Source: Bilabrum cf. latius (Eukaryota). From it: 64,000 nt of DNA. The notes below the pieces were generated by a model. The model had not been told where the DNA came from. It saw nothing but the letters and a program-made list of their open reading frames with translations, and made no database searches. Both the position numbers and the translations under genes were made by a program. The stretch lies in contig OZ237736.1 in assembly GCA_965178125.1 (NCBI GenBank), positions 310,001 to 374,000 of the forward strand, in the 5' to 3' direction. Positions within the stretch are counted from its first letter, which is position 1. Each line of letters opens with the position of its first letter. Shown here piece by piece: positions 14,901 to 57,515 of this stretch.

Positions 14901-15504
14901 CCTTTGGGCCGACACGATGATGCCACTGCTGTAGGACCTGCTGGACGTGACCCAGGAGAAGCTGTAGGTGCCTCATTTGGACGAGCACGTCGACATCCAG
15001 CGGTCTAGGGGCTTGCACCGGCCCTTCCCGTTGGAGGCCCTGCACCGCTGTGGGGTGTTTGGGGCCGTGCGGTAGATCTGGAGCGGAGGCTCTCTCGAGG
15101 GGGCAGCTGCTTCTGCTCGGCGCGATGATGATGATCGTGTTGTTGTCCGCGGTTTGGATGAGAATGCCGCCGGTGGCGATGCCAGTGCATTCGTGGATTC
15201 TCACTGTACAACTAGTGGTGGTGGCGGCAAGGGCCCAAGGGGGCCGGTGTCTTGGAGGGTGAAAGAGCTGTGCGAGCAGGTGCTCGCGATGGAATAGGAG
15301 CTGCTTGAGGACACCTATAGAAGTAGATTGTCTGCTGCTGGCGGGAGCGGGGCAGGCAGTCCCGATGGCAGTGGAAGCGAAAGTGCCGGTGGCAGCCAGG
15401 GCACGGCCTCCGCTCGATTGCGAGGTGCTGCAGTCTTTGATGGGAATGACAGCCCGCGGCACTTCAGGGGACTGCTCATGTTCATGGAGGAGGACTTCCA
15501 CTAA
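11992..15504 (+). CDS. ribonuclease-inhibitor-type (NLRC3/RanGAP-like) LRR protein, about 1170 aa
   Basis: ORFs 11992, 12220 and 12943 are in one frame joined by TAG. Motifs include GLKKLSEALAHPSCSLRRLDL, LARNQALVEIDVSFCGF and VGDDGTRVICEAI. Ends at TAA 15502-15504 followed by AT-rich DNA. Confidence 0.8.
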
Positions 15505-15633
15505 TGTGTGTTGATTGTTGTTTGATATCTACGTTGTATTGCCAGTCGCCTCCGAGTCATGGCAGTTCATGTCGATGCGAAGGTTCGTGAACATTGACCG
15601 GACATCGGAATTTCGGAAATTTCCACAGACGCC

Positions 15634-16580
15634 ATGGCGGGAAATGCCTCAGCTGACGATGACTTGAAATTCGTGGACGCTAACGACCCCAGTATCCGAG
15701 ACGATGCATCTGCTGGCGCGGCTCCGGCTCCTCTAGGAGAGATGGCACCGGTTCCAACGCAAACGCTCGGCCAGATGGGCGATGGAGCACCAACATGGCG
15801 CAACTTTATTTGTTTGTCTTCGAATCCAGGGGTAGCGTTCTTCCATCTCTTCTTCAAGGTGAGCCGCTGTGCAAATCATTATGCGCGCCCTAGGCCCGGG
15901 GCAGCTACATGTGTACTCGGTTTGCTGCCGCGCTCTCGCTTCTGCCGCAGGCTGTCGCCCTATTCGTATTTTTGTTTTACAAGCTGCTCGGATTGAATTT
16001 CGAAACCACATTTATCGTATGCACGCTGTCGCTGGCGTTCGACTTCTGGGTTGTGAAAAATCTGTCGGGAAGAATTCTTGTTGGGCTTCGATGGTGGAAC
16101 GAGCAGAAGGAAGACGGCAGCAGCGAGTGGAGATTCGAATCGCATCCTGATGGGAGGGAAGGCGTGAAGCCGGTGGACAGCCGCATCTTTTGGACCGGCC
16201 TGTACGCGGCCCCTGCGATCTGGCTTGTGGCGGGCATCCTGGAGCTGCTGTCTCTCAGCTTCACTTGGCTGCTCATCTGTGCCGTTGGGGTGGCACTGCA
16301 GGGCGCGAACGTGTATGGGTACATCCGCTGCTCTCGCAGCCAGCAGCAGCAGCTCGAGTCGGCGATGCAGAACGGTGCGCTGTCAGCGTTCGGCGGGGGT
16401 ATGCTCGGGACGGTGATCGCAGCGGCTGGTGGAGCGTCGAGGCAAGCGGCTGCGGCACCGGCTGAGGCCTAGAGCGCGAGTTCCGGCTAGGCAGGCGCCC
16501 CATCTGCGCCGGTTGGAGGGCCTCCAGCACAAAGCGGCAGCCGGTTCACGGGCAGCGCTGATGGATTGGGGGAGCCGTGA
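15634..16580 (+). CDS. TVP23: Golgi membrane protein TVP23 (DUF846); exons 15634-15858 and 15951-16580
   Basis: FFHLFFK / AFDFWVVKNLSGRILVGLRWWNE / WRFES / GANVYGYIRC. Two TAGs in the tail, ends at TGA. Confidence 0.92.
15859..15950 (+). other. spliceosomal intron, 92 nt
   Basis: GTGAGC...GCCGCAG; removal restores the TVP23 frame. Confidence 0.88.
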
Positions 16581-16657
16581 CAGCAAGGGTGGAGACACCT
16601 TTGGTTGGATTTGAATAGTTCATATGTATTCTAAATACGACTCAAATTAGATCAAAA

Positions 16658-16980
16658 TCATATTCTTTCCAAACCTTCAAGTCGAACTATCGTGTTGCCT
16701 CGAATCACCTGCGCGCGTTGCTCCAAGATATCAGGGTGGAATCATCCTACTGGGAAATTGGAAGGAGGCTAGAGCAAAGCTATTACAATACTTCACTTAC
16801 CACATTTCCCATCTCAACCTGCTCCGTTTCGGAAACCTTCTCGAACGTTTCGTCCAGAACCACGTTCATGTACAGGTCGTATCCCTTCAGGATGCCCTGA
16901 ACCTCCCGGCCTGCGTTCAGCGTAACAGAAACGCGCTTGTTCATGAACTTTTTCAAGTCAGGTCCGATTGGCTTGGGCAT
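16658..16980 (-). CDS. SNRPG: small nuclear ribonucleoprotein G; exons 16980-16801 and 16708-16658
   Basis: MPKPIGPDLKKFMNKRVSVTLNAGREVQGILKGYDLYMNVVLDE...GNV|VIRGNTIVRLEGLERI-TGA matches the SmG Sm1/Sm2 motifs. Confidence 0.93.
16709..16800 (-). other. spliceosomal intron, 92 nt
   Basis: GTAAGT...GCGCGCAG; removal restores the IRGN motif. Confidence 0.9.
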
Positions 16981-17119
16981 GGCTTCAGCAAGTCTGCCAC
17001 TTCCCGGCGCTGCTTCGGCGCCGCGCAATAATCCGGAGTCGATCAGGCTTTGGTTCCGTACCGTCACAAACCATCAATCCATCCTTATCGACTCTCATTT
17101 CCTCTAGGATTGCGTTGCA

Positions 17120-19018
17120 ATGTCATCATTTGGAAAAATATTTCGAGTAACAACATTTGGCGAATCGCACTGCCGCGGAGTGGGAGCGATTATCGATGGG
17201 TGCCCGCCAATGCTGCACCTGTCAGAGGCAGATATACAGCCGCAGCTGACCCGCCGCCGCCCAGGGCAGAGCTCGCTGACGACACCTCGGTCTGAAAGTG
17301 ATAGGGTGCAAATTCAATCCGGTACAGAGGGTGGATTTACGCTTGGAACTCCGATCGGTCTCTTCGTGCCGAACCTCAACGTGAAGCCGCAGGATTATTC
17401 GGAGATGACCAAGATTCCGCGTCCCGGGCACGCAGACTTCCTGTATCAGGCAAAGTATGGAATCAGGGCGGCTTCGGGTGGCGGTCGATCTTCAGCTCGT
17501 GAGACGATTGGCCGAGTGGCAGCGGGCGCAGTTGCCGAGAAATGGCTCAGGCAGCAGTTCGGGACCGAGATTGTCTCCTTCGTGTCATCCGTAGGATACA
17601 TTCTTCTAGCCCCCGAAGCGCATAGAAATTCCGAGGGAAAGCCCTGGACGAGGGCCGAAGTGGACATCCGGGGTACGCTGCGCCTCATCGCAGGCGAGAA
17701 CTACTCCCAGGCGCTCAAGGAGGGCGCGGACGAGGCCGCCCTGAAGCAAGCCAGGGAACAAGACGAGGCGGCCTTTGTGGCGGCGGGGCCCCCACCCGCC
17801 AGGGAAGGCGAACGGCCGCCACCGGGAACCTTCGCCCAGTCTGCGTCGTCGTCCTCGTCCTCGTCCTCGTCGGCGGAAGTCGCGACAGGCGCCTCGACAG
17901 GAAGTTCCGCAAGCACCGGCGCCGCCGGCGCTCCGTGCTACGTGGACTCGGAAGGGAACCTCTACGACAGAGAAGGTTCCTTGGTGGGCAAATGCAAGGA
18001 GGCCGCTCCCACCGTGGACAGCCTGGGCACGGTGAGCCCCCCCACCGGGAAACAGACCGAAGCGGCGAGGAACGTTCTCCCAGGACTCACCGATGACGTG
18101 GTGCAGGTCCGCTGCCCTTGCCCTAGCACCTCCGCGAGGATGGCCACCCTGATCCGCTGGATCAAGAGCCAGAAGGACTCCACTGGGGGCACCTTGGCCT
18201 GCACCTGCTCCGGAGTGCCCATCGGCCTTGGGGAGCCTTGCTTTGACAAGCTCGAGGCTCAGCTGGCGCATGCCATGTTGTCCCTTCCCGCCACCAAGGG
18301 CTTTGAAATCGGCTCCGGATTCGACGGCACGAGGCTCAGGGGCTCCCTCCACAACGACATGTTCGCTCCCGCCGGTGACGCGCCGACCTCCTGGACGGGT
18401 CAGGCGGAGAAGGCGGTCCTGGCCGCCACGTCAGCCACGTCATCGGCGGTGGCGGTGGCATCATCTTCCTCCGGAGCTGCATCCTCCTCGTCTTCCTCTC
18501 TGCCTGGGGCAGCTGGCCCTGTGCAGGTGCACGGCACGATGACGCAGGGCAAGGTGCTCCTGCGGCCTGCGACCAACAGGGCGGGAGGCACGCTCGGAGG
18601 CATCTCAACGGGTGCCGACATCGAATTCCGGGTAGCGATCAAGCCCGTGTCGACGATCGGCAGGGAACAAAAGACGGCAGGCTTCGACGGAGGCGTAACG
18701 GAGCTCAAAGCACGTGGCAGGCACGACCCCTGCGTGCTGCCCAGGGCACCGCCGCTGGTGGAGGGCATGGCTGCCTTGGTGCTGGCAGACGCGGCGCTTG
18801 TGCAGGCCACGAGGAGGCCACCGGTGACGTTCGCGCAGGCGGTTGCAACCAGTGGGAAGGTTGCAACCGGTAGCGACGGCGAGGCAACTGCCGCCGTAGG
18901 GGAGAAAAGGAGCATGCCCGTGGGGGCAACTGCTTCGGGTTCTGGGGCAGCAGCGGAGGCACCCAACGGCACAGATGTACCCGCTGCTGCAAAGAAGGCG
19001 CGAACTGAGCCCGCATGA
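17120..19018 (+). CDS. aroC: chorismate synthase with long low-complexity insertions
   Basis: TTFGESH, RPGHAD, GGRSSARETIGRVAAGAVA and GRHDPCVLPRA signatures; no TAG; ends at TGA. Confidence 0.96.
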   Translation: MSSFGKIFRVTTFGESHCRGVGAIIDGCPPMLHLSEADIQPQLTRRRPGQSSLTTPRSESDRVQIQSGTEGGFTLGTPIGLFVPNLNVKPQDYSEMTKIPRPGHADFLYQAKYGIRAASGGGRSSARETIGRVAAGAVAEKWLRQQFGTEIVSFVSSVGYILLAPEAHRNSEGKPWTRAEVDIRGTLRLIAGENYSQALKEGADEAALKQAREQDEAAFVAAGPPPAREGERPPPGTFAQSASSSSSSSSSAEVATGASTGSSASTGAAGAPCYVDSEGNLYDREGSLVGKCKEAAPTVDSLGTVSPPTGKQTEAARNVLPGLTDDVVQVRCPCPSTSARMATLIRWIKSQKDSTGGTLACTCSGVPIGLGEPCFDKLEAQLAHAMLSLPATKGFEIGSGFDGTRLRGSLHNDMFAPAGDAPTSWTGQAEKAVLAATSATSSAVAVASSSSGAASSSSSSLPGAAGPVQVHGTMTQGKVLLRPATNRAGGTLGGISTGADIEFRVAIKPVSTIGREQKTAGFDGGVTELKARGRHDPCVLPRAPPLVEGMAALVLADAALVQATRRPPVTFAQAVATSGKVATGSDGEATAAVGEKRSMPVGATASGSGAAAEAPNGTDVPAAAKKARTEPA

Positions 19019-20362: not shown

Positions 20363-20707
20363 CTTTCAGGCTCTCATGTCCATTCTGCATCAAGGTAATG
20401 ATTTAGAGGCGCGCCTGATGCAGTTGTCTGAACATGCAGCCAAACAGGCGGTTTCAATGATTGGCTGGGCAAATTCCGCAATTGTTCAACCGCGATAGTG
20501 ATACTTTAGAGGATCAGCATGCTTCCGCATCCAGCACAGTGGATGAAAAAACTTACAATGCAGATGTTGGTCTGAATCGCTATCGAATTGCACACGATTT
20601 TCCATGCAAGCTTCTGATCGCGCATCGATGGCCCGAACTTGCAGTTGCCGTGCGAGTCGCTCCGGGTCCTCGCAACGAACAGCTGGTCGCAAGTCTCAAC
20701 ACATGGT

Positions 20708-23155
20708 TTAATCCTCCTCCACGACCATGTCCTGGATCTCCTTCCTATTTCCAGCCGCAAACGCGCTGATCTCTTCGATCCGAAGCCGGTCCCTGCTCAC
20801 CTCTTCCTGCTTGCGGCCGTCCACGGCGCGGTGCCTCTCGTCCTGGTCGTATTTCTTGACCTCGTCCAGCACAGCGAACACCTGGCCCAGTCGAGCCTCG
20901 GCAGCGGCGGCAATCATCCCATCCGCCGTGTCCCTGTCCCCCAGCATGGCCGCAAGATCCTCGGGCATGTCCACCAGCCGAACCCCCACCTTGCTCCCCT
21001 CGTCGTCCTCTTCGCCCTCTCCGCCCTCCCCTGCGGAACCATCCTGCGCGGCGCCATCGGAACCCATACCACCCATGGGCATCCCCCCATCCTACCCGTC
21101 GCCCCCGGCCGCCCCCCCGTCTGCGGAACCATCCCCTGATCCCGCGGCGCCCCCACTCCGAGCAGCAGCATCGTGCTGCGCCTTTGCTTCATCCACGGCC
21201 CGCTGGGCCGCGGCATCGGCCGTGCTGTCGGCTCGGATCACGGACAGGATCCGGGGATCTCTGATATTGTGCTTTGATAGGTGCGCTTTTAGGAGCTGCG
21301 GCGCCGCCGATTCCGGATCCTCGGCGTACCTTTCCACGAGCTGCATGATGTGTTCCTTGGAGTTTTTGCCGAACCAGTCCTCAAGGCTCACCGCCTCGTT
21401 GAGCGTGTTGTCCAGGAAAGCCCTCCTCTTGTCGCAGAGGTCGTTGAAGGCCGTGTGGAAGGCGTCCAGAACCGCCACGCAGGATTCGTGCAGCCTTAGC
21501 TCAAGGAGCAGGAGCCTGCCCCTCGTCTCCTCGTTCTTCTAGTGGGCCAGCTGGAGCAGCTCCAGGGCCTCGTCGGGACCCATCGCCTGGCCGTCCAGCC
21601 GGAAGACCGCTTGTTCCCTGGGTGTCAACTCGATTCCGAATAGGGGGTGCTCGGTCGGTCCGACGGCGCCTGCCTCGCTGCTGTCGGCGCCCCTGGAGGG
21701 TCCGCTGGAAGCACCAGCTCCACCTGCTGCTGCGGCCCCGCGGCCCTTGGTCGACGTCGATGCGTGTGACGAGTGAGCCTCCCCAATCTCGGCCTGGAGC
21801 TGCTTGATTTTGTGCCCCAGCCCTCCCGGAGCCGTCGTGTCCTCCTCTTCTAGCCTTCGCCGAACCTTCTTCAAAAAATTGCGGAACATGGAAGCGACCT
21901 GCATGCTCTCCAGGTCACTGGCCTCCCGCACCCTCCGAAGAGCCTCGTCCACGTCTCTCTCTTCTCGTTGAATGGCGTGGCCCATCACGGTCCCGCGCTC
22001 AAGAGCCCGAAGCACCACCTGTGTGACGGAGCGGGCGTACCGGGCCCAGTACACCTGCATGCCTGGGATGCGGAGCACGCGGTTTCGTGCGAGCAGAAGC
22101 TCTGACTCTGCCTCGGCGTCGATCAGGTCGTCTTCATCTTCGATTTCCTGCACTTCCTCCTCGTCATCGCCCCCAGCCCCCATGCTGCTTCCGCCCGCGG
22201 GCCGAGCACCTGCTCGGCTGCTCCCTGCTCGTGCTCGCCCCTCCTCGTGTTCGGTTTCTTTCATAAGCTTGCTCCCGTCGTCATCGTCCGGCTATCCCGA
22301 TATGCGGCCCCAGAGGCCGGCCAGGAAGTGCATGCCCAGCTTGTGCATCGCCGAGCGCTCGTCCTGGCGCCGCTTCACCTCCGCCTTTGCTTCGACCAGA
22401 CGCTCCTCTCGCATCCTCAGCGGCTCAGATTCCGTCACGTGAGCTTCCTCCGCAGCAGTTCGCTCCTCGCCGGTGATCGCGGTGTAGTCGAGCCACTTGA
22501 GCTGCGGCAATTTCGCGATGGTGATGCCTCTGTATTCGGGCTCCCGCTGGCACGCGTGAACGTTCCCAGAAATAGACAGGCACTTGAGCTTCGGCAAGCG
22601 CCGTAGGTGGGCGATCGAATCGAAGCTCTAGAAACTATTGTTGCCTAGCGTTAGAATCTGCAGCTGCGTCAAATGGCTCAGATTCTCACAACGCCTGATC
22701 TTGTTTGAGGCCAGTAGCAGGTCTGTCAGTTTCGTGTTGTGCGTGAGGTTCTCGATCTTCTCGATCCGATTGAACGAAAGATCGAGCTCCTCCAGATCGC
22801 GCAGCGTATCTAGCCCTTCTATCCGGGATATCCTGTTGTTGTCAAGCTTCAGGACTCGGAGGGATGTCAGCGCCCGCAAGTTCGCAATCGACAGGATCGA
22901 TCTGAAGGACAGCTAGACACTTGGCAACTTGTGCAACTCAAGCTAGGGGAAAACAGGTTTCGCATCAATCAAGGCCTTGAGATTCTTGCTCTGGGCAGCC
23001 GATGCTTGTGCCTACGCTGCCAGATCACGGGCCTCTTCCTCATACAGAATCTCATCCTCCCGTACCGCATCTCGTATCATCCTTTCATCGATAACCCCGT
23101 GATCAGGATCTCTCACTTTGATGGGCTCAACAGTATAGCGAAACAACGACGCCAT
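20708..23155 (-). CDS. DRC3: dynein regulatory complex subunit 3 (LRRC48)
   Basis: SDS22-like LRRs (LKLDNNRISRIEGLDTL..LDLSFNRIEKIENL), LRR cap LPQLKWLDY, coiled coil and C-terminal RDRLRIEEISAF. Seven TAGs; ends at TAA near the homologous C-terminus. Confidence 0.85.
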
Positions 23156-26370: not shown

Positions 26371-26519
26371 GCACAGCAAGGGAGGCTCGATCACTGGTGA
26401 CATGAAAGAATGCACGGCCCCTGAACTGATTCGAGCAGTGCGTGAACAGTGAAATTCAAACTTGAAATGTACAGGACACGAGCATCAAGTGGTAGTACAG
26501 TTTTTTTATTCTGATTGAG

Positions 26520-43189: not shown

Positions 43190-46100
43190 ATGGCAGCATC
43201 CGGGGCTGGATAGGATGCTTCAGTGCCCCGGCAAGGCCAGCAACTTCATGGAGAATCAGGACCCCTTGAGCAGCTTCGTAGAACGTTTGCCTTTGCTCGA
43301 TCGTAAGATTTTAGAGGGCTTCGCCAGGTGCAGCTAAATCATGGTGCGTCCCATTTCTTGCTTGCTCGGGTTGGCGTTTAAATTTGCGCAGCCAGGGAAA
43401 CTCCAACTACTCCAAGAAGCGATTCCTGGAAGCCATTGATCTGTACACGATCGCACTAGAAGCCGTGGAGGAGTACGATCGAGAGTGTGAACCCGTGATT
43501 CGAGAGCGGGAGCAGCTGCTCGCTCCCAAGGGCGAGGCCGCAGGCAGGCGCCTGGAGCTCCTCCAAAGCTACCTGGCAGTCCTCGCGAATCGCGCCGTCT
43601 CGAACGAATCAGCGCTCCGTCCGCACGCCGCCCTTCGCGACGCGCGGAGACTGGTCACGCTCCTCGATCCATGGATGCGAGCACTTGCCCCCGACGGGAG
43701 CAAGCGGGAAGGCGCCGTGCTCGTCCTAGACCGCAAGATGCCATACAACCCAGACACTGCCCTTTTCAGGCTTGCCACCGCCCATGCGATTTGCGGGTCG
43801 CATGCTGCATCAATCAGGGTGAAGCGAATCGCGGACGCCCGGCGGGCAGCTGCCGACAAGGCGGCAGCAGCTGCCGGGGAGAAACCGACAGATCCAGAAT
43901 CTCCTCACTGTGAGTAGGAATGGCTGCAGTCACATCGCCATCTTAAAGACAACTGTGCTCAGCGTGGTTCCTCTTCTTGTTTGCCCCAATGGTTTGACAT
44001 GATGATGATGATGATGATCGCACTCATTCACGACCGTTTGTCTCTCCTCAAGCGTCTCTATCATTTCGCAGTCAAGCGCTGGATCGACCTGGAGAAGCGG
44101 TGGTCTGCCCAGCTGCAGAGCGGCGACTTCGCCAAAGAGAACGCCCTCGCGCTCACAGGCCCCCTCCCCCGGGGGCTCTTCCTCGTGCCCGGGCCCGAGG
44201 GACAGGGGCAGGAGGAGTCCAAGGACGCGGCCAACGGGCTGTCCGTAGACGGGTTGACTGATGACACCCTTCGCATGGGCCTGTTCCCCGCCCCAGGGGC
44301 CCTTCCAGCCACCGCGCTGCTGGCGCTCAGGAAGGCAGCGGCGGCCGGCGCGGCTGCCTTTGGTTCCGCAAGCGAGAGCGGCGCCGCCAGCAGCGGTCCC
44401 GCCGCGGGGGACAGCGCAGGTCCTGCGTCGTCTCCGGCGGGTGAGCACCCGTTGGAGGTACCGATCGCCGAGGAGCTTCCAGGCAACCCAAAGGATCCCA
44501 AGTCGTGGCCCACGATCGCCGGCGTCGTAGAGCAGGCCGGGGATGTTGGGGAACAAGGCAAGCCCACGGCCGCCGTCTTGATCAAGGCACTCGCCGCGGC
44601 GAGGCGAATGGCCGCAACTGCACGACTGGCGCTGCGGCAGGGGCAAGACCCGTCCGTGGCCGAGTCGGCGGTCACGCGCGGCCTCCAGATCCTGCAGCTG
44701 AAGCTGGATGGCAAGAGGGCGGCTTCCGTGCCTGCTGCCGCCAGAGCCGCTCTGGAGAGACACAAGATGCCGCTGCTGGCTGTCCGCGCGGTGGTGCAGG
44801 CGCTGGAAGGCGAGTGGGACGACGTGCAGGCTGACGCTGGCAGAGTGATGGCTAGACTCGGCGTGGGGGAGGGCGAGACGGCCCGGCAGCGCGCGACCAA
44901 GGAGAGCCTGATCGACCGGGAGCTGGAGGATGCTGATAGCGTGCTACTGCTCGCGGCGGTGGCGGCCCAGAGGCTGGGCGATTTTAGGGCCGCTGCGAGC
45001 GACTGGATCAGGCTCCGGCGGAGGAGGAACGGCAGGGGCCTCGGCCAGGAGGGGCAGGCGGCCAGGAGCATCGCGCTGTGCTCGCAGGCGCTTAGCAACA
45101 AGCGGATGTACAAGGAGCAGAAAGAGGCCATCGAAGAGGCGGGTGGGTATGGGTCTCCCGTCAAGCCGCCAGCGGGAGACACGGGTGTGGTGGTGGGCGA
45201 GCTGATTGAGGGGCTGCACGACACCATCGGCGAGGTCGAGGACGATGAGGTGGTCGGCGGGGACGGTGGAGAGGACGACAGTGAGGACGATGATGACAGC
45301 GAGGCGGATGAAGACGAGGACGAGGAGCCCGAGGACCTGGACACTGGTGACGAGCCACCGCCCCAGATGCGCGTGGTGCTGTGCAAGCACACGCGCGGGC
45401 CCATGCCCCCGCCTGTCCCCGTGCCCTCCAACGCAGCCACTCTGACTCGCGGTGTGGGTCCCACCCGCGTGCTGGTGCTAGTGGACCTGGACTTTAGGCT
45501 GTCGGAGAGGGTGGCTCAGGCGATGCTAGGGCCCGCCATTGCCGAGGAGCACAGGAGATCCGTAGAGAGCGGGCAGAAGATGATCCGCATGCTGCAAGGC
45601 GAGGTGCAGAAGAGGGAGGCGGTGCTGCAGCAGCTGATGAGCCGGGCAGAGGCTGCTGGGGCCAAACGTCCCGCTGATCTGGACCAGCAGGTGTCCAACA
45701 GCATGTCAGTCCTGCAGCAGATGCGCATGCGCCTGCAGTCCGTGATTCAGACGACCCAGGCGACCGCCCAATCGGAGCCGCACGTGAGGGCACTCAACCT
45801 GAGAAACTGGCGGATGGTAGACTGGTCCAGGGAACAAGCTGTTATCGTCCTCAGCGGTCCTCGGAGGGGCTGGCTGGAGGACGACGGGAGCGATCCCAAC
45901 GGCTTCGTCAGGTGGCTCTCCGGTGCCGTCCCGGGGACAGATCGGGTGGAGGTGCCGGTCAACACGCGCCCGCCGCTCGGCCACATCTGCTTTGGCGTGC
46001 TGACTTGTACCCATTCCGGCTACTTTCAGCAAACGAGTGCGTACGCCATCACGATCGCAAAGCTGATGCAGGCGTGCGGCGCCGAGCAGATCGTAGAGAT

Positions 46101-48675
46101 CGCTGAGGTGGACACGGCCAAGGGACCCAACGTGCTTCACGAAGTGGCAGCCGTGTGGTGCGATAAGACTGCCAAGGCGATCGTGAAGATGGCCAATGAG
46201 AGGCTGCTCGGGCCTTCCAACCTCTCAGCTGGGCTGCCGCGGTCGCCAGAGACGTTCGACTATCTGGCAGTTGCGTGCGACGGCGAGTCGATGGGGTGGC
46301 GCGGGGGTGACGGCAGGCCACCGACGGGCGCGAAGGGGGAGGACGGTCTCATTGGCATGAAGCGGCTGCAAGATTTCGCCATGCGTGCCACGCCACGGTC
46401 CGCCGCCCACAGGCTCCGCCCGGTCCCGATTCGCCTGCTGTCCGTGCGCGGGGTGGGGTCGGGCAAGGAGCCAGCCGAGGCCGCGGCTGCCACGGACAAG
46501 GCGTGGGATGAGACGAGGTCGGCCGGTGCGCCAGACCTGCTCGAGCTCCGGTTCGAGGTGGCTGACCCCTTGCTTACGCTTGCGCCGCATTTCGGAGTCG
46601 CAGGGTTTCTGGGACCCAACGGGGCCCCTCAGCCTGCCCTCAAGTCCGGCGGCGAGCTTGGGATTGCCGGCGGGCTGTCACCAGGAGATGCCGTTGGACT
46701 GCTTCTTCCCGAGCCCGAAGACCTGGCCAATGACGTGCTCAAACTGCTAAGGGTGTCTAAAGACGCGGAGGCGCCTGCCCCTGCCTACATTACGCAGGAG
46801 TACCCCCAAGAACGTATCGTGCCTTCCTTCAGGCAGGTCGCCAAGCAGATCACGCAGGCGCTGCCATCCGAGTATCCCTTGGACCAGGACCCGAGCACGA
46901 TGTCCTTTGTGCTTCAGGATATCATGTCCTGGGACACAAGCGAGGATGTGGCACCATTCCAGGGCCGCAGCAGCCTCCCCGACGCCGAGATTCCCCGGCG
47001 AACGGCGCTGCATTCCGAGGACGGCACGATCCCGGAGGGCCTGCCGAGCGCGCCCTTGCCACCCGTGGTGGATGCAAGCCCGGCGAGCGTGCGCCAGCGT
47101 GAGGTGTGCAGGATCGGAGAGGGGCTGGGCAAGCTCTGGAAGCTCTCGAGCGCCCAACCGCAGCTGCTGGACTGGTGCCGGGGCTGCCTGCAGCTGCACG
47201 CTGCGCAGACCAAGGGCAGCGAGGGTGACGAAGCCATCGCTGCAGAGCTGGGGCGCCTGGACTTGGAGTTCCAGCGGCTGGTTCTGGCTCGCGCGGCCAA
47301 GGCGGTGGAAGGACCCGCTGCTGCCGTCGCTGCTCGCGATTTGGAGCTGGCCGGTGGGGACGAAGGCAGCGTCTGCCTCCACCCGCAGCTCCGCAGCCAG
47401 ACGCCGTCCATGCCGCTGCCTACCGCGGGGGACGGCTCGATCGATCAAGCGAAGCTGGCAGAGTTCGTCAGGCACCTGACGGTGCCGCAGGTGATGCAGG
47501 CCGCGAACGAAGCAGCTGGGTCCGAGACTGTGTGCGCGTGTCCGTCCCACCTGAAGCAGGACATCAAGCTCGGCTGCGCAGGCAGCCAGCGGCAGTGGCT
47601 CGGTCACTTTGCGGCCGCGCTTGGTCCCGTGAGCGCAACCCTAGTGCCTGTGTCTTCGGGCGTGGCCGATCTGGCAGCAGCCAGGGCAACCGTGCGCCGC
47701 GCAGCAGACACAGGGGCCGGAGGTGCCGCGGCCAGTGGGGCTGGTGGACCCGGCCAGCCGTCGAGTGCGTCAGGTGCAGGGGGAGAGCCCATGTACACTG
47801 CGTCCGTCATTATCAGTGCCAGCAACCTCCCTCTCGGTGCCAAGTCATCGGCAGCACTGAGGCCGGGCACCGTTCTCGGCATGTACCCCCACCGTGGAGT
47901 CTGGCCGTGTGCACCGGCGGCGAGCGCCCTGCCCTGCACGCTCGTGTGCGAGGGGGATGGGATGGGCCTCGCGCGCGTGGTCGTCATGGAGCGGCTTCGC
48001 ACCGGCGCGGCCGGCAAGACCACCGTCGTTGCCATCGTTCCCGCCGTGGAGGCAGAGGCGGCCGGCGGGGACGGTGCAGAGGCGGCCGTCGGAACAGCAT
48101 CTGCTACTTCTGCGGCTGGTGACGGCAGGGATGCTGCGGCTGGGGCACTGCCGGTCTCCGCCTCCGGTACTGAGGGTGAATGTGCTGGCGATGCAGCCGT
48201 GGCAGCGGCTGCCCGTGCCACGTCGGTGCTAGGAGAGTTGCGTGCACTTTCGAGGGGTGGCCACATCGATCTGGTGGTGGTGTCCGGGTCGACGAGCGCG
48301 GAGGCTGGTGCCAGGGCGAGGGCCTGGAGGCAGGGGATCGACGGTTCGCTGGACGAGAAGGTCAGGGACAGGCTCCTTGCGGCGGGCGCTGCCGATGGGG
48401 CGCACTGGCTGCAGGCCGTGGCTCTCGAGAGGTCGGCTGAGGCATGCAGGGCCATGCGAAGGGCGGTGTGCGACCAGGTCGGGTCCATCTGGTTCTGCGG
48501 GAGCAGGCGCCGCATCGGCGCGATTCCCCAGATGAGCTTCGCGGTGACTGCCGCAGCGTTCGCCGGCGGGGAGGAGGGCAAGCCATTGCAGCCTGGTAAG
48601 CTGCCCCCGCCAAGGCTGCAGTCGCTCGTTGCCAAGAAGCAGGCCAGGGGACAGTTCCAGATGGTCATATGCTGA
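43190..48675 (+). CDS. TPR protein fused to a degenerate diflavin (CPR/NDOR1-like) reductase; exons 43190-43302, 43392-43909, 44072-48675
   Basis: ARSQGNSNYSKKRFLEAIDLYTIALE..VLANRA (TPR); LGHICFGVLTCTHSGY..LMQACGAEQIVEIAEVD (flavodoxin-like); LELRFEV..SPGDAVGLL (FAD-binding-like); PCTLVCEGDGMGLARVVVMER, GSIWFCGS and ARGQFQMVIC (FNR-like). Confidence 0.72.
43303..43391 (+). other. spliceosomal intron, 89 nt
   Basis: GTAAGA...TTGCGCAG; phase 2 join gives RSQGN. Confidence 0.72.
43910..44071 (+). other. spliceosomal intron, 162 nt, containing an (ATG)n microsatellite
   Basis: GTGAGT...TTTCGCAG; the join gives PHFKRW. The intron is itself frame-preserving, so retention cannot be excluded. Confidence 0.7.
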
Positions 48676-48839
48676 GGAGGAGCTGTTTGCGGGCAGTGGC
48701 AGCGTAGAGTGGGGCTCTGCTGTGGGGCGCTGATGTGTGTGATTTTCGCTGAAACGATAGAACTCGAAATATCCTGACACACGCCAATGATAGCTGTATG
48801 CCTAGATGTAGATGGAACCATGCTGCCAACCTATTCGCG

Positions 48840-49415
48840 TTATCTTCGCAGCTGGGAAACATCGCTGTCAAATACTAAATTTTTCATTTCCTCCTGAACG
48901 TCTCGCGAGGTAGATGCCCCGGTGCGCTTCCCTTGTGATGCTGCTCCTGGCACGGGAGAGCCAACGTGCCTAGCTGTCATTGTTCGGCACAGACTTGGTG
49001 GCAGCGCTCTCTATGCACTCCTGTTGACAACTGCTCCCGCATACGACCCACTTGGCTATATGCTACAAAGAACTAGGGGTCTATCGGAATTCATCGTGTG
49101 GCGCACGGCAGCGGGAGCGAATCCGCTAGAAGCTGCAATAATGCCCACGGATGCAGTCACCGAGGATTTTTGGCCATCGAACTGGGCCAACGATCCTTCC
49201 AGCTCCCGCACCGACTTGACAGGAAGAGGTTTGCTAGTTCTTTTGCACTACACAGCTATCGTCGTGTTTTGTGGACCATCACCAAGCAAGTCAATCCCAC
49301 CATCCGAAGGACCCCCGACGCGCAGGAAACTGGCGACACGAAGTCGCTGCAAAGTAGCCCCAACTACGTGCTCATATTCGGTTCCTGCAGCCACAAAGCT
49401 TTTCCATCGCCGCAT
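48840..49415 (-). CDS. RRG7/DUF2034-like, Mrr-type PD-(D/E)xK nuclease-fold protein
   Basis: GTEYE..RVGGPSDGGIDL..IAV*CK..VRELEGSL..VGIIAASSGF matches the family with *=Q. Ends at TAA. Alternative starts at 49451 and 49508. Confidence 0.85.
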
Positions 49416-49529
49416 CCTTGCCAGCAGTGCACAATTCGCGCAGTTGCACATGGTGATTTTTCGAAGCCGGGTGACGAGCAACTTAATTTGGCTCTGCAGC
49501 CCGACCATATCTTATCTTTCTCTTACACA

Positions 49530-50858
49530 ATGAGCTCTTCGGATGAATCAGAATTTGACGGTTGGGACGGTGCGGCTGCAGGTGGGTTCATGAGTCCGAA
49601 TGGAAGGACGGCCCGGACGTCTTAGAGAAAAGGTGGCTTCGATTCACCTGCTAGGTCCTCAGCAGGGAGGAAACGGAACCGATCTAGCATCATCTCGTAT
49701 AGAATTAGTTCGTCAGGTTCTGAGGATGAAACTGACGGGGGCGAAGTCAGTGAGGATTCGCATGAAGTCGCCCCAGAGAGACCAGGCAAAAGGAGGCGCA
49801 CAGCAGCGTCCACTGCACCCAAGGAAGCCGCTTCTGGCATCAAGTCAGAGCATTCAAAGAGGAATACGAAGCGCATGCAGGCTAGGGGAGCTGTCGATGA
49901 TGATGAACCGGAAAGCTCAGATTCAGGCGACGGCAGCAGTGCGCGCGATTCCGACAGCGTTTTTTACAGCGAAGCAAGCGAATTCAACGACTCTGATAGC
50001 GACTTTGATGCGAGTTCATCACACAGGCAGAGAAAGGGTGGTTCAAAACTAGGCAAATCGAGTGCAGGCAAGAAATCGAAGGCGAGCAAGTCAGCAGCGA
50101 ACAGCAAGAAGCGAGCAGGCAGCTCGGCGGCTTCTGAGTCTTCCATGGGAGGCGCCTCGGCGTCCAGCAGCAAATCTACGAAACCCTCGACGACTGGTTA
50201 GGCAGCAAAGGCAAAGAATGGATCGGCTGGCCCAGCCAAAAAGAAGCGCGTCCCAGGTTCGAAACCCGCTGCGGAGCTCCCTCTCACCCTGGCCTCCAGA
50301 AAGCCGGCCGGGAAGGCGACCGTGCTCGTTTCGTCAGAGCACCCGATCGACCTGGAAGGAGAGGTTGGTGCGGTGGGCTGTGTCACCATGGCGGGCGAGA
50401 CGCTCGTGCTGGACATCGCCGGGCACAGGTACCGCGCGCGGCCGGTGCCGGTGCAGTCGCACTGCGTGCTGCACGTCACCGACAAGGAGGCGAAGATCGA
50501 GTCGATCGCGAACGTGTGCCTGTAGCTAGACCACCTGGCTGACGTGGTACAGGAGCTAGGCGGGTCACTAGGGGAGGCGGGCGCGGGGATAGACGCCAAG
50601 GCCTTGTTTGCCTCTGTGGAGGCAGAGGCAGGGGTGAGCGCTGTGGGCAGTGATGGTGCTGGGAAGTCAGGCGGTAGGAAGGGGCGTGCATCGTCCACAA
50701 CAGCAAGTAGCAGCAGCAGCAGCAGCAGCACGGCTGCGTCAGGCCCTGGTGCTGCTGAACCAGCCGTGTTGGGTTCTCAGGCGGTGGCAGCTGCGCAGGA
50801 GTTGGAGATGATCGGCAGGGCAAGGAGCAAGGGCCGCTCAAAGAAGAGAAAGCATTGA
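49530..50858 (+). CDS. BIN4: BIN4/MIDGET-like topoisomerase VI accessory protein
   Basis: ELPLTL..VLV..IDLEGEVGAVG..LVLDIAGHRYRA..HCVLHVTDKEAKIESIANVCL*L parallels plant BIN4 IDLSGDMGAVG..LDLKG..EAKIEAIMNDFIQL. Three TAGs; ends at TGA. Confidence 0.8.
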
Positions 50859-51078
50859 TCCCGGATCAATTTTTGTGCAATGAGACTGGACAAGACTAGA
50901 TATAGCCTAGCGAGCCTAAAACTTAAATAGTATAGAGGATCTCATGTCTCTGGCACGTGCCGTGCTCATCAGTGCGCTGCACACAATCGCATTGCACCAG
51001 TAGCCAATCCGAGTTGCACCCGTAAGACTCGACCATATAGTAGAATCTTACCTCAGAGGCCGAGCCACCAATCGCTAA

Positions 51079-54000
51079 TCAGTCCCAGTCATCCACCGCG
51101 CCGCCCGCCCCGCCCTTGGCAGCGTTGCGGATCTGTGGCTAGTCCCTGTACATGGTGGCCACCTGTTCCGCCGACGTCGCAGCCTCCGCCGCTTTGTCGT
51201 CCCTGACCCGAAGCAGCCTGGGGAACCGAAGAGCGATGCCCTTGCTGCTGTGGACGATGCCCACGGCCGCGCGGTGCACCGGGGATATGCTCAGGTCGGC
51301 GGCCTTGATCTCCCACACAGCCTTCGGCTCGAACCACACCTCCGGCTCCATGTTGGAGTCGATGCCCATGGGCTTCTTGGGACGGATCAGCTCGTTCTCA
51401 TTGAAATACTTGGTGAACTCCTGCAGCTGCTCGTCGGAAAAACCAGTGCCCACCCTCGTGACGCTCTGGAAGCTCTCGTCCTCCTGGCTGTAGCACGCCA
51501 GGAGGTACGCCCCGTAGGTGCCGGACCTCTTCCCCTTGCCGTGCCAGGCCCCAATGGGCACCAGATCGAACGAGTCAGTCAGCCCATCCATGTAGTCCTT
51601 CTTCAGCTTGAGCCAGTTGAGGCTGCGCCTGCTGGGCAGGTACGTCGCGTTCGAGTCCAGCGTCTTCACCATGAGCCCCTCGCAGTTCTGCTCAACGGCC
51701 TCGTTCAGGAACATGCCGATTTCCTCCAGCTCGCTGCCGTCGGAGCCCTTGGCGAAGGCGAACTTGCCCTCGACCTCTCTGAAGTGCGTGTGCAGCAGCT
51801 GGCGCCTCTGCCGCAGCGGCAGCCGGATGAGCGACTGGCCGTTGAGGTACAGGAGGTCGAAGGCGCAGTAGATCACCTTGACGCCTACGTCCTCAGCCTT
51901 CACGTCCTTCCTGGCCCTGCGACTGAGCTCCTGGAACGGGAGCAGCTGCTTGCGGACGCGGTCGTACGCCACCACCTCGCCGTCGAGAACGAAGCTGCCG
52001 CCCTCCGCTGAGGTGCCGGTGACAGCCGTGCCAGACGCAGGCACAGTGGCTCCTGCTGCCTATGATGAGGACGACGACGACGAGGATGACGATGACGAGG
52101 ATGAGGATGAGGATGAGGATGAGGATGAGGATGATGATGATGACGAAGCACTGGACGTGGATGATTGCGCCGCTGATGATGACGCTGATGAGGAGGAGGC
52201 CGCTGCCGCAGGCTTAGCGGCATCTGCCGCAGAAGAAGCGGGAGAAGGCTCTGCCGGCTTGGCCTTGGCCTTGGGCTTGGACCCGAAGAAGCTCATCATG
52301 GTCTTTGCCTTGGGCTTCTTGGCGGCCTTGTCTACTCCCCCACTGGCCGCCTTGCCAGCAGCGTCCCCGCCTACTGCTGCCTTCTTCTTGGACGAAGCAT
52401 CTCCTTTCGACGCTTGTGCAATCGTACCAATGTACGCCTCCCGGATCGCCAAGCCAATGTCGGGATACTTGATCGAGGTGTCCTCACTGTTGCGGCTGAA
52501 GCACCCAATCTCACCGTTGGGAGTACAGTGGACCTGCGCACGCTCTCCGTCGTACTTGTACTCGCAGGTGAAGCTGACGCCGCTGAACCGGTCCAGCACC
52601 TCTCCCACGCTCTTGGTTGGCTTGGCGAGCATGGGCGAGACGGGGACCCCGGGCTTCAGGTGGCACCGAACGCGCGCCGCTGGCACGCCGCCTTCCAGCA
52701 GCGCCGGGATGATGTCGTTGTACGAGGGCATCTCGCTGTGGATCTGCTTGATCTCTTCCACAGCCGCCTCCACCTCCATGTTTGCCGTGGACCGAATCCT
52801 CAGCGTCTTCGGGCTCCTCCGGGCATCCAGCCTCAGTGCATAGGACCCGGCCTCCCCGCCGGCTTCTGGCATCGCCGGAGGTGGGAGACCGGCTGCCCCT
52901 GCGACCGATGCAGGCGCGCTAGCTGCGGCAGAGGCACCGGCACCGCTGCTGCTGCCACCAGCTGCCTGAAGCGCCTCCAAGGCGTACGCAGCGAGTAGCC
53001 TGCGCATGGGGATCAGTGCCGCATTTGAGGCAGCTGCCTTGTCTCTCCTCTTTGACGCGGCCGACTTCTCCCCCTTGCCCGTTCCTTTGTCTTTGCCCTT
53101 GCCGGCCTTGGCCTTCCCTGCCTCCTCGTCCTCGTCCTAGTCGCCGTCCTGGCTGCTGACATCGTCCTCATCATCGTCATCATCGAGCCCGTCATCATCA
53201 TCATCCCTCATGGAAGCAGTTCCAATGGACGCTGTTTCTGCTGCCATCGAGACGGCGTCTTCGCCGTCCTCGCCCTTGGTGGCCCTGGCTGAGACACCAG
53301 ACTCGCTCGCACCGACGCCGCCATCAGGACCACCAGCATCGCCAACAGCCCCGGTGGCCGATGCAGCAAGAAGTGCCGAAATGTCCGGTCTCCGCTCGCC
53401 CAAATGCTACGAGAGCGCGCTGTCTGCTTTCGAGCCAGCCATCACGTGGGCTGCCACCGGTGTGTTGGGAGGCGTGATGGCGATTGCTTGCGCCAGTGCC
53501 ACCAGCACGGTCCTCTCCGCCAACCCGATCCTCAGCTTGCACTGGAGTCCACGGATTAGAAACCTGGCCTCGTGGCCCTTGGGCTTGCATGCCAGTAGCA
53601 TGCCCTTGATCCTGGCAGTTTTCTTGTCCTGGCTCGCCTTCCCAGACTCCATGGCAATCGCTTTGAACTCCTTAAACACCTTTCGCAAGGTCAGCGGCTT
53701 GGGCTGCATCAGGGACCGCTGGGAGCCCTTGGATTCCTCTGCTACAAGACCGAGGTCTCCCAGGACCGGCACCCGGGATCGAACCTGCGCGAGGGGCCTC
53801 CCTGTTCCCTGGGAAATAGATTTTCCGATGATAGAGTCCCCGATCCCCAGCTCGAGCCCCTCGTGGGGTGGCGCCAGCCTCGTGCATGCCAGGTTGACGG
53901 CGGGGAGCAGGTCCTCCGGGGACAGCGCAATCACGGAGCGGAAGAAATCTCGCAGGATGGCCGTAATGCCGAGCCTGCGCAAGTGAAGAGATCGTGGCGA

Positions 54001-54665
54001 GTGGTGGCCGTTGCTCGTTCAATCGTGTGCATGTCGACACAGTACCGGCAGAGGGGCGGCAAACACCCCGTTCGATCGGAGAATCGAGACGAAATAATTT
54101 ACGTTGGAATCAAACGGTTTGGGTCTCACCTGCTGGGCTCGTCCTCGATTTTCTTGAGAGTCTGCGCGAACTGGAAATACGGCACGGGCGATCCGATGGA
54201 CCAGCCTGCGTCAGCGACAGGGTCGTACTCGCCCTTCGTCACGCTGCTGGTCTCGTCTCCAACTTGGCCTCCGCTGCCAGCACCGGATGAAGGCGCCGAC
54301 GCTTCTCCTGCCTTTTTTGCTTCAGAGGAACCGGATACTTCGACGCCAGTCGCAGCCGACGATGGCTTCGAAACAGCTGATTTCTTCTTTTCGCCCGAGG
54401 ATCGAGGCTGAAAGAAGCTGTGCAAGCCAGAACTAGCCTGCGGCTCCGTCTTGGCGCGTTTGGCTTCCGGGGCATCGTCCGCTGAAGCCCGCGGACGCTT
54501 CTCTCCGGGAGAGGCAACTGCTTCGTTCTCGTCGTCGGATTCGATGGCAACTCGGCCTGCACCTGCGCCGTTGGCTACACCCTCTGGTCTCAATACGCCT
54601 TCATCATCGCTATCAGCGACTTTGGAAGCGCTTTCACGAGACAAGCTGGCGCTCCTGCGAAGCAT
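51079..54665 (-). CDS. LIG1: DNA ligase I; exons 54665-54130 and 53974-51079
   Basis: ELGIGD, PMLAKPT, EYKYDGERAQ, VLDGEVVA, AFDLLYLNG, EGLMVK, WLKLKKDY and ALRFPRL motifs. Four in-frame TAGs; ends at TGA. Confidence 0.95.
52063..52147 (-). repeat. poly-Ser coding microsatellite in a ligase insertion
   Basis: (GAT/GAG/GAC)n on + reads as a TCA/TCC/TCG run on -. Confidence 0.9.
53975..54129 (-). other. spliceosomal intron, 155 nt
   Basis: GTGAGA...TTGCGCAG; the join gives KIEDEPSRLGITAILRDFFRSVI, the expected LIG1 DNA-binding-domain sequence. Confidence 0.88.
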
Positions 54666-55061
54666 ACGAACGGTGACGCCCCTTCAAACAATCTTAGAAT
54701 GAATGCTTCTTTTGTACTAGATGATGAAATCATAAATTTAAGCTAGATCTTACATGTTTAGAACAGCAGCGCGGTGTAGCTTTGACAGGTGGATACTAAT
54801 TTGCGGCCAGGAGTTGCGATTTGCGATTGCCCTGATCCCCTATTCAACTCGAAGCTTGGATATCAAACCCTGCGATGATCGCCCAGCAACTCGTCCCAAC
54901 TTCTGGATTCGATGGAGAGCCGCGATACTGACCTAGATTTGGAATCTTGTGCGATGCTTGCAAATTTTGAAACCATGGCGGCGCCGCGCAACTGCAGGTT
55001 CCGCAATAGCTCCACAGATGGACTGGACAGGACCACGGGTGTTTCAGGTGAGCAGCGCCAT

Positions 55062-57515
55062 TTAACGGCCACAGAGGGCAACCCTCGCCGCGTATTGTGC
55101 AACGCTAGGCGCTAGCCCGCACGCTATGCCGAATCGAACCACCTCGTCCCGCAGCCGGAGCGCAGATCCAACCCCAGCACACAGCTACAACACGCCAACT
55201 TGCCATGCCAGTGGTGCATCGTGGTAAATTGGAACAACCGACCACGCAGGCGATCCACTTGCTAGCAATCTCGATAGCTTGGCTTCTGCGGACTCTTTGG
55301 CTCGCGTGTCTTCGGCATCGAGTGCTTGCTCGTAAGGAGCCGGAGCACTTGCTTCATGCCGGGCAGTTTCAGGAGCAGCTTTCGTTTCCTCCGTGGAGCG
55401 ACTCGGATGCGTTCCCTTGGTATACTTCCCAGCATCACGGCTCGCTTGGTTTGATAGCGCGAGCGCTGGCACGGCTCCGCGAGTATGAGCACCTGCTTGC
55501 CTGGCCATGGAGTGAGCACCTGCCTGGGCACCGGCCCTTCCGATGGAAAAGCTGCTCGGTGAGAGAACGCTAGAGCTGGCTGGACTTGCAAGCTTGATTT
55601 CATGCTATGATCCGCTAGATGCCCCCTCGCCAATTCCAGCCGCTGCCTGCTTTCGCCGAGCGAGCACTCTCTTGGCAAGTCCTTTGAGCAGAGCGCTGGG
55701 CAAGTCGCTGCGTGTCACGATGATGGGCCGACCCTGCAATTCGCGGGGCTGGTGCTTAAGCACCTCCATCATCATGCTGTTGGGTGCTCTGTGGCCGATA
55801 CCAGCTGCACTCGATTCCCCAAAGTAACCCCCGCTGCGCTGCGCCGCCTCGTTAACCACAGAGCCAGTCTGCAGCGGTGTCAAGCCCTAGCCCCCGGCTC
55901 CTAACCTACGCGGGTCGGCAATATCACCGCTCTGTGCATATTTTGCTCCTGCCATTACCTCCCTTTCCTCCCTGCTGATCCCGAGCAAACCGGCGGACCG
56001 GCCCGGCATGGCCGCTATGCTCCTTCTTGCTTGTCTTTTTGGCCGACTGCTGCCACTGCCATCCCCTGTGGAACGTTCGTCTCCGAGTCGCGCTGGACCT
56101 ACAATGCCAGTTGCATCCACGGCTGGTGGAAGTGCTACCGGTCTGCCTTCTTTCTTGCGATGCTGCACCTTGCTGTCGCCTCCCCGCTGCGTAGTCATAG
56201 GCGGTGGGGCTCGCCTAGCGCCCTGCTCGGCTTGCGACGCAGTGCTTGACGATCGTGCTCTGGCAGTGCTTGGTCGCAACGCCCCAGGTCCTCGGCGGCC
56301 GCCGGCAGCCGACCTTGAGGCGCTGGAGGCCTCTGCCTCTGCTCGCCTCTGCTGCCTCTGCGCCCTCTGTATCGCCTCGATGTGACCGCCCAGTCGCGCG
56401 GCGCTGCCTCCGGGGCTATCTCGGAAGAGCTGCTGGGCGATTGCTTCCGCCGAGTAGGTCGCAAGATTGCTCACAATCATCACTTTGCGCCGGATCGAGC
56501 CCTTCAGAGCGGTTGCAACCTCGGGCACAGCGAGAGGGGGGAAGCACAGGAAAACGACCCTGCACCTTCGAAACACCCGGGCTGGTTCCCGGCTAAACTA
56601 TACGCCGGAGTCCTTGAGCCCTTGCAGTCCCGGGCTCTCAACAACTGGAACCATGCAGTGGATGCGCCCGAGCGCCACTCCGCAGCGAGCGAGCAGGCTG
56701 ATAGTCGCGCGTGCGACGCCACCGCACCCGATGAAACCGATGCCGAATTTGGTGCCCTCCGCAGCATCCACCAGGTCGACCACCCTAGATACGCAGGACA
56801 TGCATATGAACGCGTTTTGGGCGGCGATGACGCTTTGTGACATGCGCCGCAACTCGAGGGCTCGCGCGAGCAGGTGCGCCTGGCCTGGGGGTGAGCACGC
56901 GTGCGGGTCTGCTCCGGCCCTTGGCGCCGAGCGAGAGATTCGCTTCGTCTCTATGCCACCCTCATAGTACATTTCGCTAGAATCTAGCATCGCTGGGTTG
57001 AAACCTAGCGGGCTAGAGGGGATCCTGCTCCGTGCTAGCGACACTGGCGTCGGGGCTATGCCTGGGTGTGGCGATACCTACGGCGCTGCCTATGCTCCCT
57101 GCGGCAGTTCTCCAAATGTATCCCTTGCTAGTAGAGCTGTATCTGAAGCAGAATGATCTGATGGCTCGCCAAACTTGCTGGGATCTCCTCCGCCGTGCAA
57201 CGAATCCACCGGTGTGCGGTGCGGACGGACCGAAGCCGCAATTGACGCTGCAATCGACGCAGCCGATGCCTTCTTCTGCTCATCATACACGCCAAGCAAG
57301 CCTTTGATAGAAGTACGAAATGTATCAAACAGTAGCGACTGGAATACTTTTGGTTGCGCAGCATCAGATTGCATTCTTTTTCGCAAGTGCAATCGCCCGT
57401 CTCGGCTAGTCTCATACTTTGCTAGGGTACCTGCCTCCTTTAGATCTACAGCCTACTCTAAAATGCCAATCCCTCTCAATATGGTTGCCGGGTCTACATC
57501 AGTTGGAGTCGCCAT
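55062..57515 (-). CDS. NOXRED1/pyrroline-5-carboxylate-reductase-like Rossmann-fold protein
   Basis: Five ORFs in one frame joined by TAG. IGFIGCGGVA dinucleotide-binding motif and CRVVFLCFPP..VPEV..MIVSNLA. Ends at TAA. Confidence 0.7.

Follow-up and report, generated by a model that had tools for sequence, protein, structure and literature searches.

Which termination codons still end translation in the genome that this DNA comes from, and does TAA remain one of them where TAG does not? The stretch analyzed here, hereafter the window, comprises 64,000 nucleotides (64 kb) of contig OZ237736.1 from Bilabrum cf. latius and forms a sample of 16-19 genes. Its content of guanine plus cytosine (GC) varies between 55 and 67% and is about 60% overall, and eukaryotic genes are tightly packed on both strands. 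The window is best explained as part of the nuclear genome of a flagellated eukaryote, rich in GC and poor in introns. A sequence-only reading of it had proposed that TAA is a true terminator and that the code is therefore distinct from NCBI table 6. Table 6 is the ciliate, dasycladacean and Hexamita nuclear code, in which UAA and UAG both specify glutamine. Our analysis makes it highly probable that the cytoplasmic code follows instead the pattern of NCBI table 15, with UAG read as glutamine and UAA and UGA as the sole terminators; glutamine at UAG is common to both codes, whereas UAA is not sense in the window. Three results bear the proposal out: the lack of interior TAA against 95-111 interior TAG, the point at which the gene for dynein regulatory complex subunit 3 (DRC3) ends, and the length of the C-terminal tail of an RRG7-like nuclease.

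The sense use of TAG is apparent from frame lengths. Summed over frames of at least 500 amino acids, the window holds 9,258 amino acids with the standard stops, 21,386 with TAG as sense, and 9,258 with TAA as sense. The frames gained by reading TAG include 2,215, 2,137, 1,801, 1,339, 1,185 and 1,154 codons, with several TAG in each. Fifteen gene-sized frames, taken from the first ATG (15,619 codons), contain 95 in-frame TAG and no TAA or TGA; in the +1 and +2 frames of the same DNA there are 50 and 54 TAA, 125 and 87 TAG, and 300 and 297 TGA, respectively. TAG accounts for about 0.6% of codons and is not avoided in frame (95 vs 125 and 87). The zero counts for TAA and TGA are partly circular, because the frames were themselves delimited by these codons. 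A recount in 16 gene frames bounded by TGA only agrees with the first count: it yields 111 in-frame TAG, distributed across all quartiles of the frames, and 11 in-frame TAA, none of which lies in the interior of a gene once leaders and gene ends are taken into account (see below). The earlier statement that no internal TAA accompanies dozens of TAG thus holds in both counts. UGA behaves as a terminator only, with no in-frame occurrence and a place at the end of 12 of the 16 genes. A context-dependent code without a dedicated stop, of the Condylostoma or Blastocrithidia type, was considered and rejected, as neither TAA nor TGA occurs in frame inside genes.

The main genes on which the argument draws, with the evidence for their identity (E is the expectation value of the match) and their stop codons, are these:

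11992-15504 (+): gene without assigned family (frame analysis), 1170 codons, 8 in-frame TAG, stop TAA 15502-15504
16901-19018 (+): chorismate synthase (Pfam 2.9e-118), conserved coding part without TAG, stop TGA
20708-23155 (-): DRC3, flagellar protein with leucine-rich repeats (Pfam LRR_9/LRR_4; PDB DRC3 chains, E 1e-34), 7 in-frame TAG, stop TAA 20708-20710
27035-33682 (-): giant RCC1/BspA-LRR surface protein, copy 1 (Pfam, frames), 15 in-frame TAG, stop TGA
35255-41668 (-): giant RCC1/BspA-LRR surface protein, copy 2 (Pfam, frames), 8 in-frame TAG, stop TGA
48840-49508 (-): RRG7/Mrr_cat-like nuclease (Pfam RRG7 1e-15, Mrr_cat 2.3e-9), 3 in-frame TAG, stop TAA 48840-48842
51079-54940 (-): DNA ligase I in three exons (Pfam; PDB human LIG1, E 4e-175), 4 in-frame TAG, stop TGA 51079-51081
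55062-57515 (-): oxidoreductase-domain gene (Pfam F420_oxidored 1.4e-6), 7 in-frame TAG, stop TAA 55062-55064
57666-60281 (+): glycosyltransferase-like gene (Pfam, frames), 9 in-frame TAG, stop TGA
60430-63894 (-): hybrid histidine kinase (Pfam HATPase_c, Response_reg), 8 in-frame TAG, in-frame 93-nucleotide intron at about 63320-63412, stop TGA

TAG might have a dual meaning, being sense inside genes and a stop at some gene ends, an arrangement that could coexist with the code proposed here. True translation ends are not visible from the window, and the last TAG lies 9, 18 and 20 codons before the closing stop in a nitrilase-family gene, the first giant paralogue and the ligase gene, respectively. 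However, the last TAG of the ligase occupies an invariant glutamine position with homology extending past it, TAG is not depleted in frame, and none of the 16 genes of this one window needs TAG as its terminator. We therefore consider a dual meaning improbable, though it is the alternative that survives best.

The identity of the amino acid was examined at conserved positions. The ligase TAG at 51139-51141 (-) aligns with a glutamine of human LIG1, and the column is glutamine in 120 of 120 fetched homologues; the codon also lies inside a contig of a public sequencing run (X6, 50962-51294; see below) that shows no differing letters. In the RRG7-like gene, the TAG at 49248-49250 (-) takes the place of the glutamine of a QCK motif, with glutamine in 148 of 150 homologues, serine in one and a gap in another. 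From these two hyperconserved columns, the assignment of glutamine to TAG is well supported. The gap belongs to P0168, a 55-residue environmental protein from the database that is 57% identical to the N-terminus of the RRG7-like protein. P0168 (aligned to 49251-49412, -) ends immediately ahead of this invariant glutamine, for which the window has TAG. Such an end is what gene prediction with the standard code would give if a relative had a stop codon at that point, and hints at a relative that shares the reassignment. A metagenome scan with P0168 returned a single locus (L001), which is an unrelated AAA-ATPase contig, and a query of the ESM Atlas with a TAG-free frame of another gene gave no usable match.

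A sense TAG with some other meaning has precedents in serine (Scotinosphaera) and leucine (a rhizarian and some ciliates), and the two giant paralogues allow codons to be compared directly, as 1,863 of 2,122 aligned residues are identical. The partners of TAG in this comparison are TAG in 3 cases, CAG in 6, TCG in 5, AAA or AAG in 2, and GAG, TAT, CTG and CCT in 1 each, so that CAG occupies 6 of the 17 differing pairs. The five TCG partners would suit serine, as would some variable TAG columns of DRC3 that are rich in serine, threonine and asparagine. These pairs are not independent, however, because all five fall within one family of 53-residue repeats; among the 12 pairs beyond the repeats, CAG leads with 6. 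Both hyperconserved columns are glutamine, with serine seen once in 150 sequences. Serine and leucine, the other residues reported for codes that reassign UAG only, are thus not supported by these alignments, and we regard another amino acid as distinctly unlikely.

The remaining question is whether TAA stops. Each of the four TAA listed above terminates a long frame, and none of these frames would be open without TAG as sense. The sequence-only reading had suggested tabulating terminal against internal TAA; the result is that 4 of 16 genes end in TAA and that the 11 TAA of the TGA-bounded frames lie in leaders or at ends. Seven are in 5' leaders, five of these before any ATG and the other two in the hydrolase frame, 5' to the ATG where the CN_hydrolase match starts. 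In the second giant gene, 2 in-frame TAA lie 5' to the first ATG. Three of the 11 stand 4-7 codons before the closing TGA, at codons 1185 of 1192, 921 of 925 and 851 of 857, and the last is that of the RRG7-like gene, at codon 235 of 647. Table 6 would predict in-frame TAA at glutamine positions, and none was found in the gene frames, the TGA-bounded frames or the RRG7 alignment. A scan for counter-examples drew on 34 further TGA-bounded frames of at least 110 codons that contain an in-frame TAA and lie outside the gene set. Of these, 23 were scanned together with one additional frame (the 11 dropped were all below 170 codons), and no Pfam domain spanned a TAA in any frame scanned.

Two of the TAA ends can be compared with protein families. 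DRC3 had been said to end at TAA 20708 close to where its homologues end, and this was confirmed by six of seven aligned orthologues: five end within 0-2 residues of the predicted C-terminus and one is 8 residues longer, while the seventh falls short of the aligned block. A PDB search with DRC3 covers only the leucine-rich repeat (LRR) part, and the C-terminus was therefore tested against fetched orthologues, namely 7 of the 24 matches of a word-based search; the rest were mostly unrelated LRR proteins. The DRC3 frame is open under table 15, and under table 6 it gains four residues before a TGA. Because read-through adds so little, DRC3 alone cannot decide between the two tables. The RRG7-like gene is more informative, since it has the sole TAA end of the four without a nearby TGA. 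Its tail after residue 176 is 46 residues long, against a median of 25 and a maximum of 83 in 135 homologues; read-through would extend it to 458. The 412 extra codons would overlap a convergent gene, which ends at 48675, in antisense over more than 1 kb. The codon-usage score in this region is 0.016 per codon for the read-through frame, which equals background, and 0.21 for the opposite gene; the score is weak in this genome (real genes have 0.03-0.30 per codon) and is offered as a side argument only. Comparison with the family supports the view that the RRG7-like protein would keep a typical tail only if TAA stops.

The other two ends are less telling, and their earlier descriptions stand in part. 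The gene at 11992-15504 does end in TAA; its description as an LRR gene is not supported by Pfam, which gave no match at E<=1. The "AT-rich DNA" said to follow 15504 amounts to a fall in GC from 0.61 to only 0.49, and GC drops past every stop, TAA and TGA alike (from 0.54-0.68 upstream to 0.43-0.60 downstream). The next in-frame stop after this TAA is a TGA 7 codons on. The genes ending at 48840 and 55062, described as RRG7-like and NOXRED1-like, both end in TAA as stated, and for the second the one Pfam match is the F420_oxidored domain listed above. In that gene a TGA follows the TAA by 6 codons. The TGA codons behind the TAA stops fall within 15505-15525, 20696-20707 and 55044-55061, and may be back-up stops or chance; after 11 tallied TGA stops the distance to the following in-frame stop is 5-52 codons.

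Could TAA nonetheless be glutamine, as in a code of the table 6 type, and scarce merely through GC bias, the TAA-ended genes really ending at the nearby TGA? TAA is indeed scarce overall (382 vs 899 TAG over both strands of the window), three of the four TAA have their TGA within 4-7 codons, and the effect on DRC3 would be slight, as noted. Codons ending in A are not that rare, however: in these genes the ratios are 135:423 for CAA:CAG, 117:334 for AAA:AAG and 30:171 for TTA:TTG. If TAA were synonymous with TAG, 17-30 interior TAA would be expected (about 30 by CAA:CAG), and none is seen in the gene set. Moreover, three randomly placed sense TAA would all fall within the last 4-7 of some 850-1190 codons with a probability of about 2e-7 (arithmetic on the TGA-bounded frames), and the RRG7 read-through would exceed every tail of its family with background codon usage. 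The case rests on these position statistics and on RRG7, because three of the four ends, taken singly, are consistent with table 15 and table 6 alike. Together they make the table 6 type very unlikely.

Splicing was assessed with contigs of four public runs from three studies (X1, X5, X6 and X7), aligned to positions 44,001-64,000. Their use was limited to the joints that they bridge and the TAG that they cover, and contig ends are weak hints at most; the RRG7-like gene and its TAA lie outside the listed contig cover. Three joints with GT..AG borders in gene orientation were found: two in the ligase gene (53973/54129 and 54653/54753) and one, seen in X5, in the kinase gene (63319/63413). The joints are present in contigs of X5, X6 and X7 (two studies), while contigs of the DNA run X1 continue straight through. 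Removal of the ligase introns at about 53974-54128 and 54654-54752 leaves an uninterrupted frame of 1,201 codons between the ATG region and the TGA. The first ligase intron, 54654-54752 (-), starts immediately past the initiating ATG. The introns supported by contigs are all short, at 93-155 nucleotides; they start with GTAAG or GTGAG and end with (C)GCAG.

In contrast to these joints, most TAG codons are retained. Of the 35 in-frame TAG of seven genes in the 44-64 kb region, 25 lie inside the listed X5 pieces. All 7 TAG of the oxidoreductase gene and its TAA are in one unspliced X5 contig (54951-57508), in which the TAA is 111 nucleotides from the contig end, a weak hint at most. All 9 TAG of the glycosyltransferase gene are likewise in one unspliced X5 contig (57604-60365). 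The table of letters that differ between contigs and window has four places only, none of them a TAG. Because the X5 contigs carry these 25 TAG without differences, TAG appears both unspliced and unchanged in transcript-like form. A loose scan for intron patterns, whose matches are mostly due to chance, placed no more than three TAG, out of 111 in frame, within intron-like stretches, and its matches in the oxidoreductase and glycosyltransferase genes are unspliced in the contigs. That the in-frame TAG are an artefact of pseudogenes, assembly errors, splicing or RNA editing is hardly credible, for although introns exist and may hold those few TAG, the codon is distributed over conserved genes (ligase, DRC3, histidine kinase), its letters are identical in contigs of all four runs, 25 of 35 are unspliced in transcript-like contigs, and chance does not produce TGA-free frames of 2,215 codons in DNA in which 1.3% of trinucleotides are TGA.

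The contigs also brought out some local features. A 162-nucleotide intron-like stretch at 43909-44071 (+), with a GC of 0.48, ends where the X5 piece of the 1,801-codon gene begins (44072); if it is intronic, the single TAG after the first ATG of that gene (43915) lies in an intron. Both the DNA run and the transcript-like run show a five-fold increase in contig depth at 62010-62676. A 150-nucleotide skip at 62382/62533 in the histidine kinase gene, present in both runs, resembles a repeat or length variant and not an intron.

Several observations weigh against the reading of UAG as glutamine and UAA as a stop. Three of the four TAA ends have a TGA 4-7 codons on, and each of these alone is compatible with table 6. 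Only two TAG columns are hyperconserved; all the other alignable ones are variable, including four in DRC3, one in the THI5 gene (opposite aspartate or glutamate in two PDB chains) and two more in RRG7. The five TAG/TCG pairs in the 53-residue repeats of the paralogues belong here as well. The runs X5-X7 are only guessed to be RNA, X5 being marked "probably DNA", and no run is recorded as RNA. Neither a tRNA gene nor an eRF1 gene is present in the window. The sample is a single 64-kb window and leaves room for sense TAA at a frequency below about 1 in 5,000 codons. Finally, TAA 8305-8307 is explained only by a predicted intron:

8282-8371 (+): predicted in-frame 90-nucleotide intron, GTGAGT...CGCAG, enclosing TAA 8305-8307 (pattern, coding score)

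This TAA stands between two coding-looking halves of one TGA-bounded frame, 6919-9186 (+), in which the halves occupy about 7759-9189. The half 5' to it has a signal peptide and C2H2-like sequence, and the half 3' to it, with a transmembrane-like segment and a tail, scores as coding. The coding score dips across 8282-8371, and the borders resemble those of the introns with contig support (93, 99 and 155 nucleotides). We read the segment as a predicted intron; were it unspliced, TAA 8305 would become the only candidate sense TAA.

How might UAG and UAA have come apart? Most simply, UAG would be read by a glutamine tRNA with the anticodon CUA, derived from a mutated copy of tRNA-Gln(CUG). The C34 of such an anticodon would be unable to pair with the A of UAA, so that the release factor would retain UAA; both codons would have fallen to a UUA anticodon. 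The release factor eRF1 would bind UAG poorly, or lose the competition there, and retain its recognition of UAA and UGA. This scheme is based on decoding rules and on the discussions by Panek et al. (2017) and by McGowan et al. (2024). A discriminating eRF1, which the sequence-only reading took to be implied, is plausible and would not be a necessary consequence, because the conserved eRF1 motifs of a rhizarian with UAG as leucine are not obviously changed, according to PMC5304391. In the 64-kb window ARAGORN and Rfam (at gathering thresholds) found no tRNA genes, Rfam at the same thresholds no other family, and Pfam scans no eRF1 gene.

Apart from the genes discussed so far, Pfam identified the nitrilase-family hydrolase, the THI5/NMT1 protein, a DUF846/TVP23 protein and others. 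The giant surface protein genes stand in tandem and have about 2,100-2,200 codons each, encoding RCC1-like repeats, about 20 of the BspA-type 53-residue LRR repeats, Ephrin_rec_like cysteine-rich modules and a transmembrane segment. Two short frames, 26391-26840 and 33964-34866 (-), each 3' to one giant copy, duplicate a gene piece including an identical in-frame TAG. The ligase gene has about 30 consecutive serine codons at 52057-52152 (-), and three of its four TAG lie within low-complexity inserts. Other conserved genes, DRC3 and chorismate synthase among them, also carry long inserts of this kind (serine, alanine, glycine, aspartate).

To what lineage does this code belong? In FastTree trees of ligase and of chorismate synthase, the window sequences fall among environmental sequences. 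The ligase lies in a clade of 34 sequences (local support 97) that includes the labyrinthulomycete sequences. The best named matches of chorismate synthase are labyrinthulomycetes, oomycetes and a haptophyte, and the closest overall are environmental, at 70% identity. These are nearest named matches and single-gene trees, and the stramenopile affinity that they suggest is an impression from names and not a placement. We found no report, in open-access papers and bioRxiv, of a nuclear code with only UAG reassigned in a stramenopile or labyrinthulomycete; the type of code has been described before, and the lineage looks to be unreported for it. Tentatively, and with slightly less than even confidence, we propose an independent origin of a UAG-to-glutamine-only code outside ciliates and metamonads, in a GC-rich, intron-poor flagellate with labyrinthulomycetes and oomycetes as its nearest named relatives, and perhaps throughout its clade. 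As TGA is the main stop and the genome is GC-rich, the change is not attributable to AT pressure removing the codon, which bears on whether such a loss of codons is needed at all. The setting points to a mutation of tRNA-Gln(CUG) to CUA in competition with eRF1. In practice, annotation of this genome would be wrong under the standard code and under table 6 alike: the former would truncate most genes at TAG, and the latter would carry a quarter of them beyond their TAA.

UAA and UAG are nearly always reassigned together and are reported to have been split in only a handful of nuclear lineages (PMC5304391, PMC11687900). Each unrelated case tests whether the split always consists of capture of UAG by a CUA tRNA with UAA kept, and which eRF1 changes accompany it, and so bears on the engineering of UAG-only suppression in eukaryotes. 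Among the precedents that assign a different amino acid, UAG is leucine in the rhizarian exLh (PMC5304391) and in uncultivated phyllopharyngean ciliates, and serine in Scotinosphaera as cited in PMC11687900; UAA is kept as a stop in all of them. These codes have the uncoupling of UAG from UAA in common with the window and differ in the amino acid, the window columns being glutamine.

The closest likenesses are to codes with glutamine at UAG. In the fornicate Iotanema spirale, UAG is glutamine, UAA and UGA are stops, and 104 of 119 genes end in UAA, according to PMC5304391. Iotanema resembles the window in having UAG in frame at conserved glutamines and UAA and UGA never in frame, and the same tRNA-Gln(CUA) and weakened recognition of UAG by eRF1 would be predicted in both. 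Stop usage is different: UAA prevails in Iotanema, whereas the window has TGA at 12 of 16 ends, TAA at 4 of 16 and 60% GC. Iotanema is also a metamonad, whereas for two window genes, those of the ligase and chorismate synthase, the named relatives that come closest are stramenopiles. Among ciliates, Hartmannula sinica, Trochilia petrani and, as cited, Protocruzia tuzeti are likewise reported to have UAG as glutamine and UAA as a stop (PMC11687900). As in the window, UAG alone is reassigned, to glutamine, and UAA stays a stop. However, according to the same paper UAA ends 87-98% of the genes of those ciliates, at a GC of 27-54%, whereas the window is dominated by TGA at 60% GC; in further contrast to them, it has spliceosomal introns, multi-gene chromosomal DNA and proteins without ciliate affinity.

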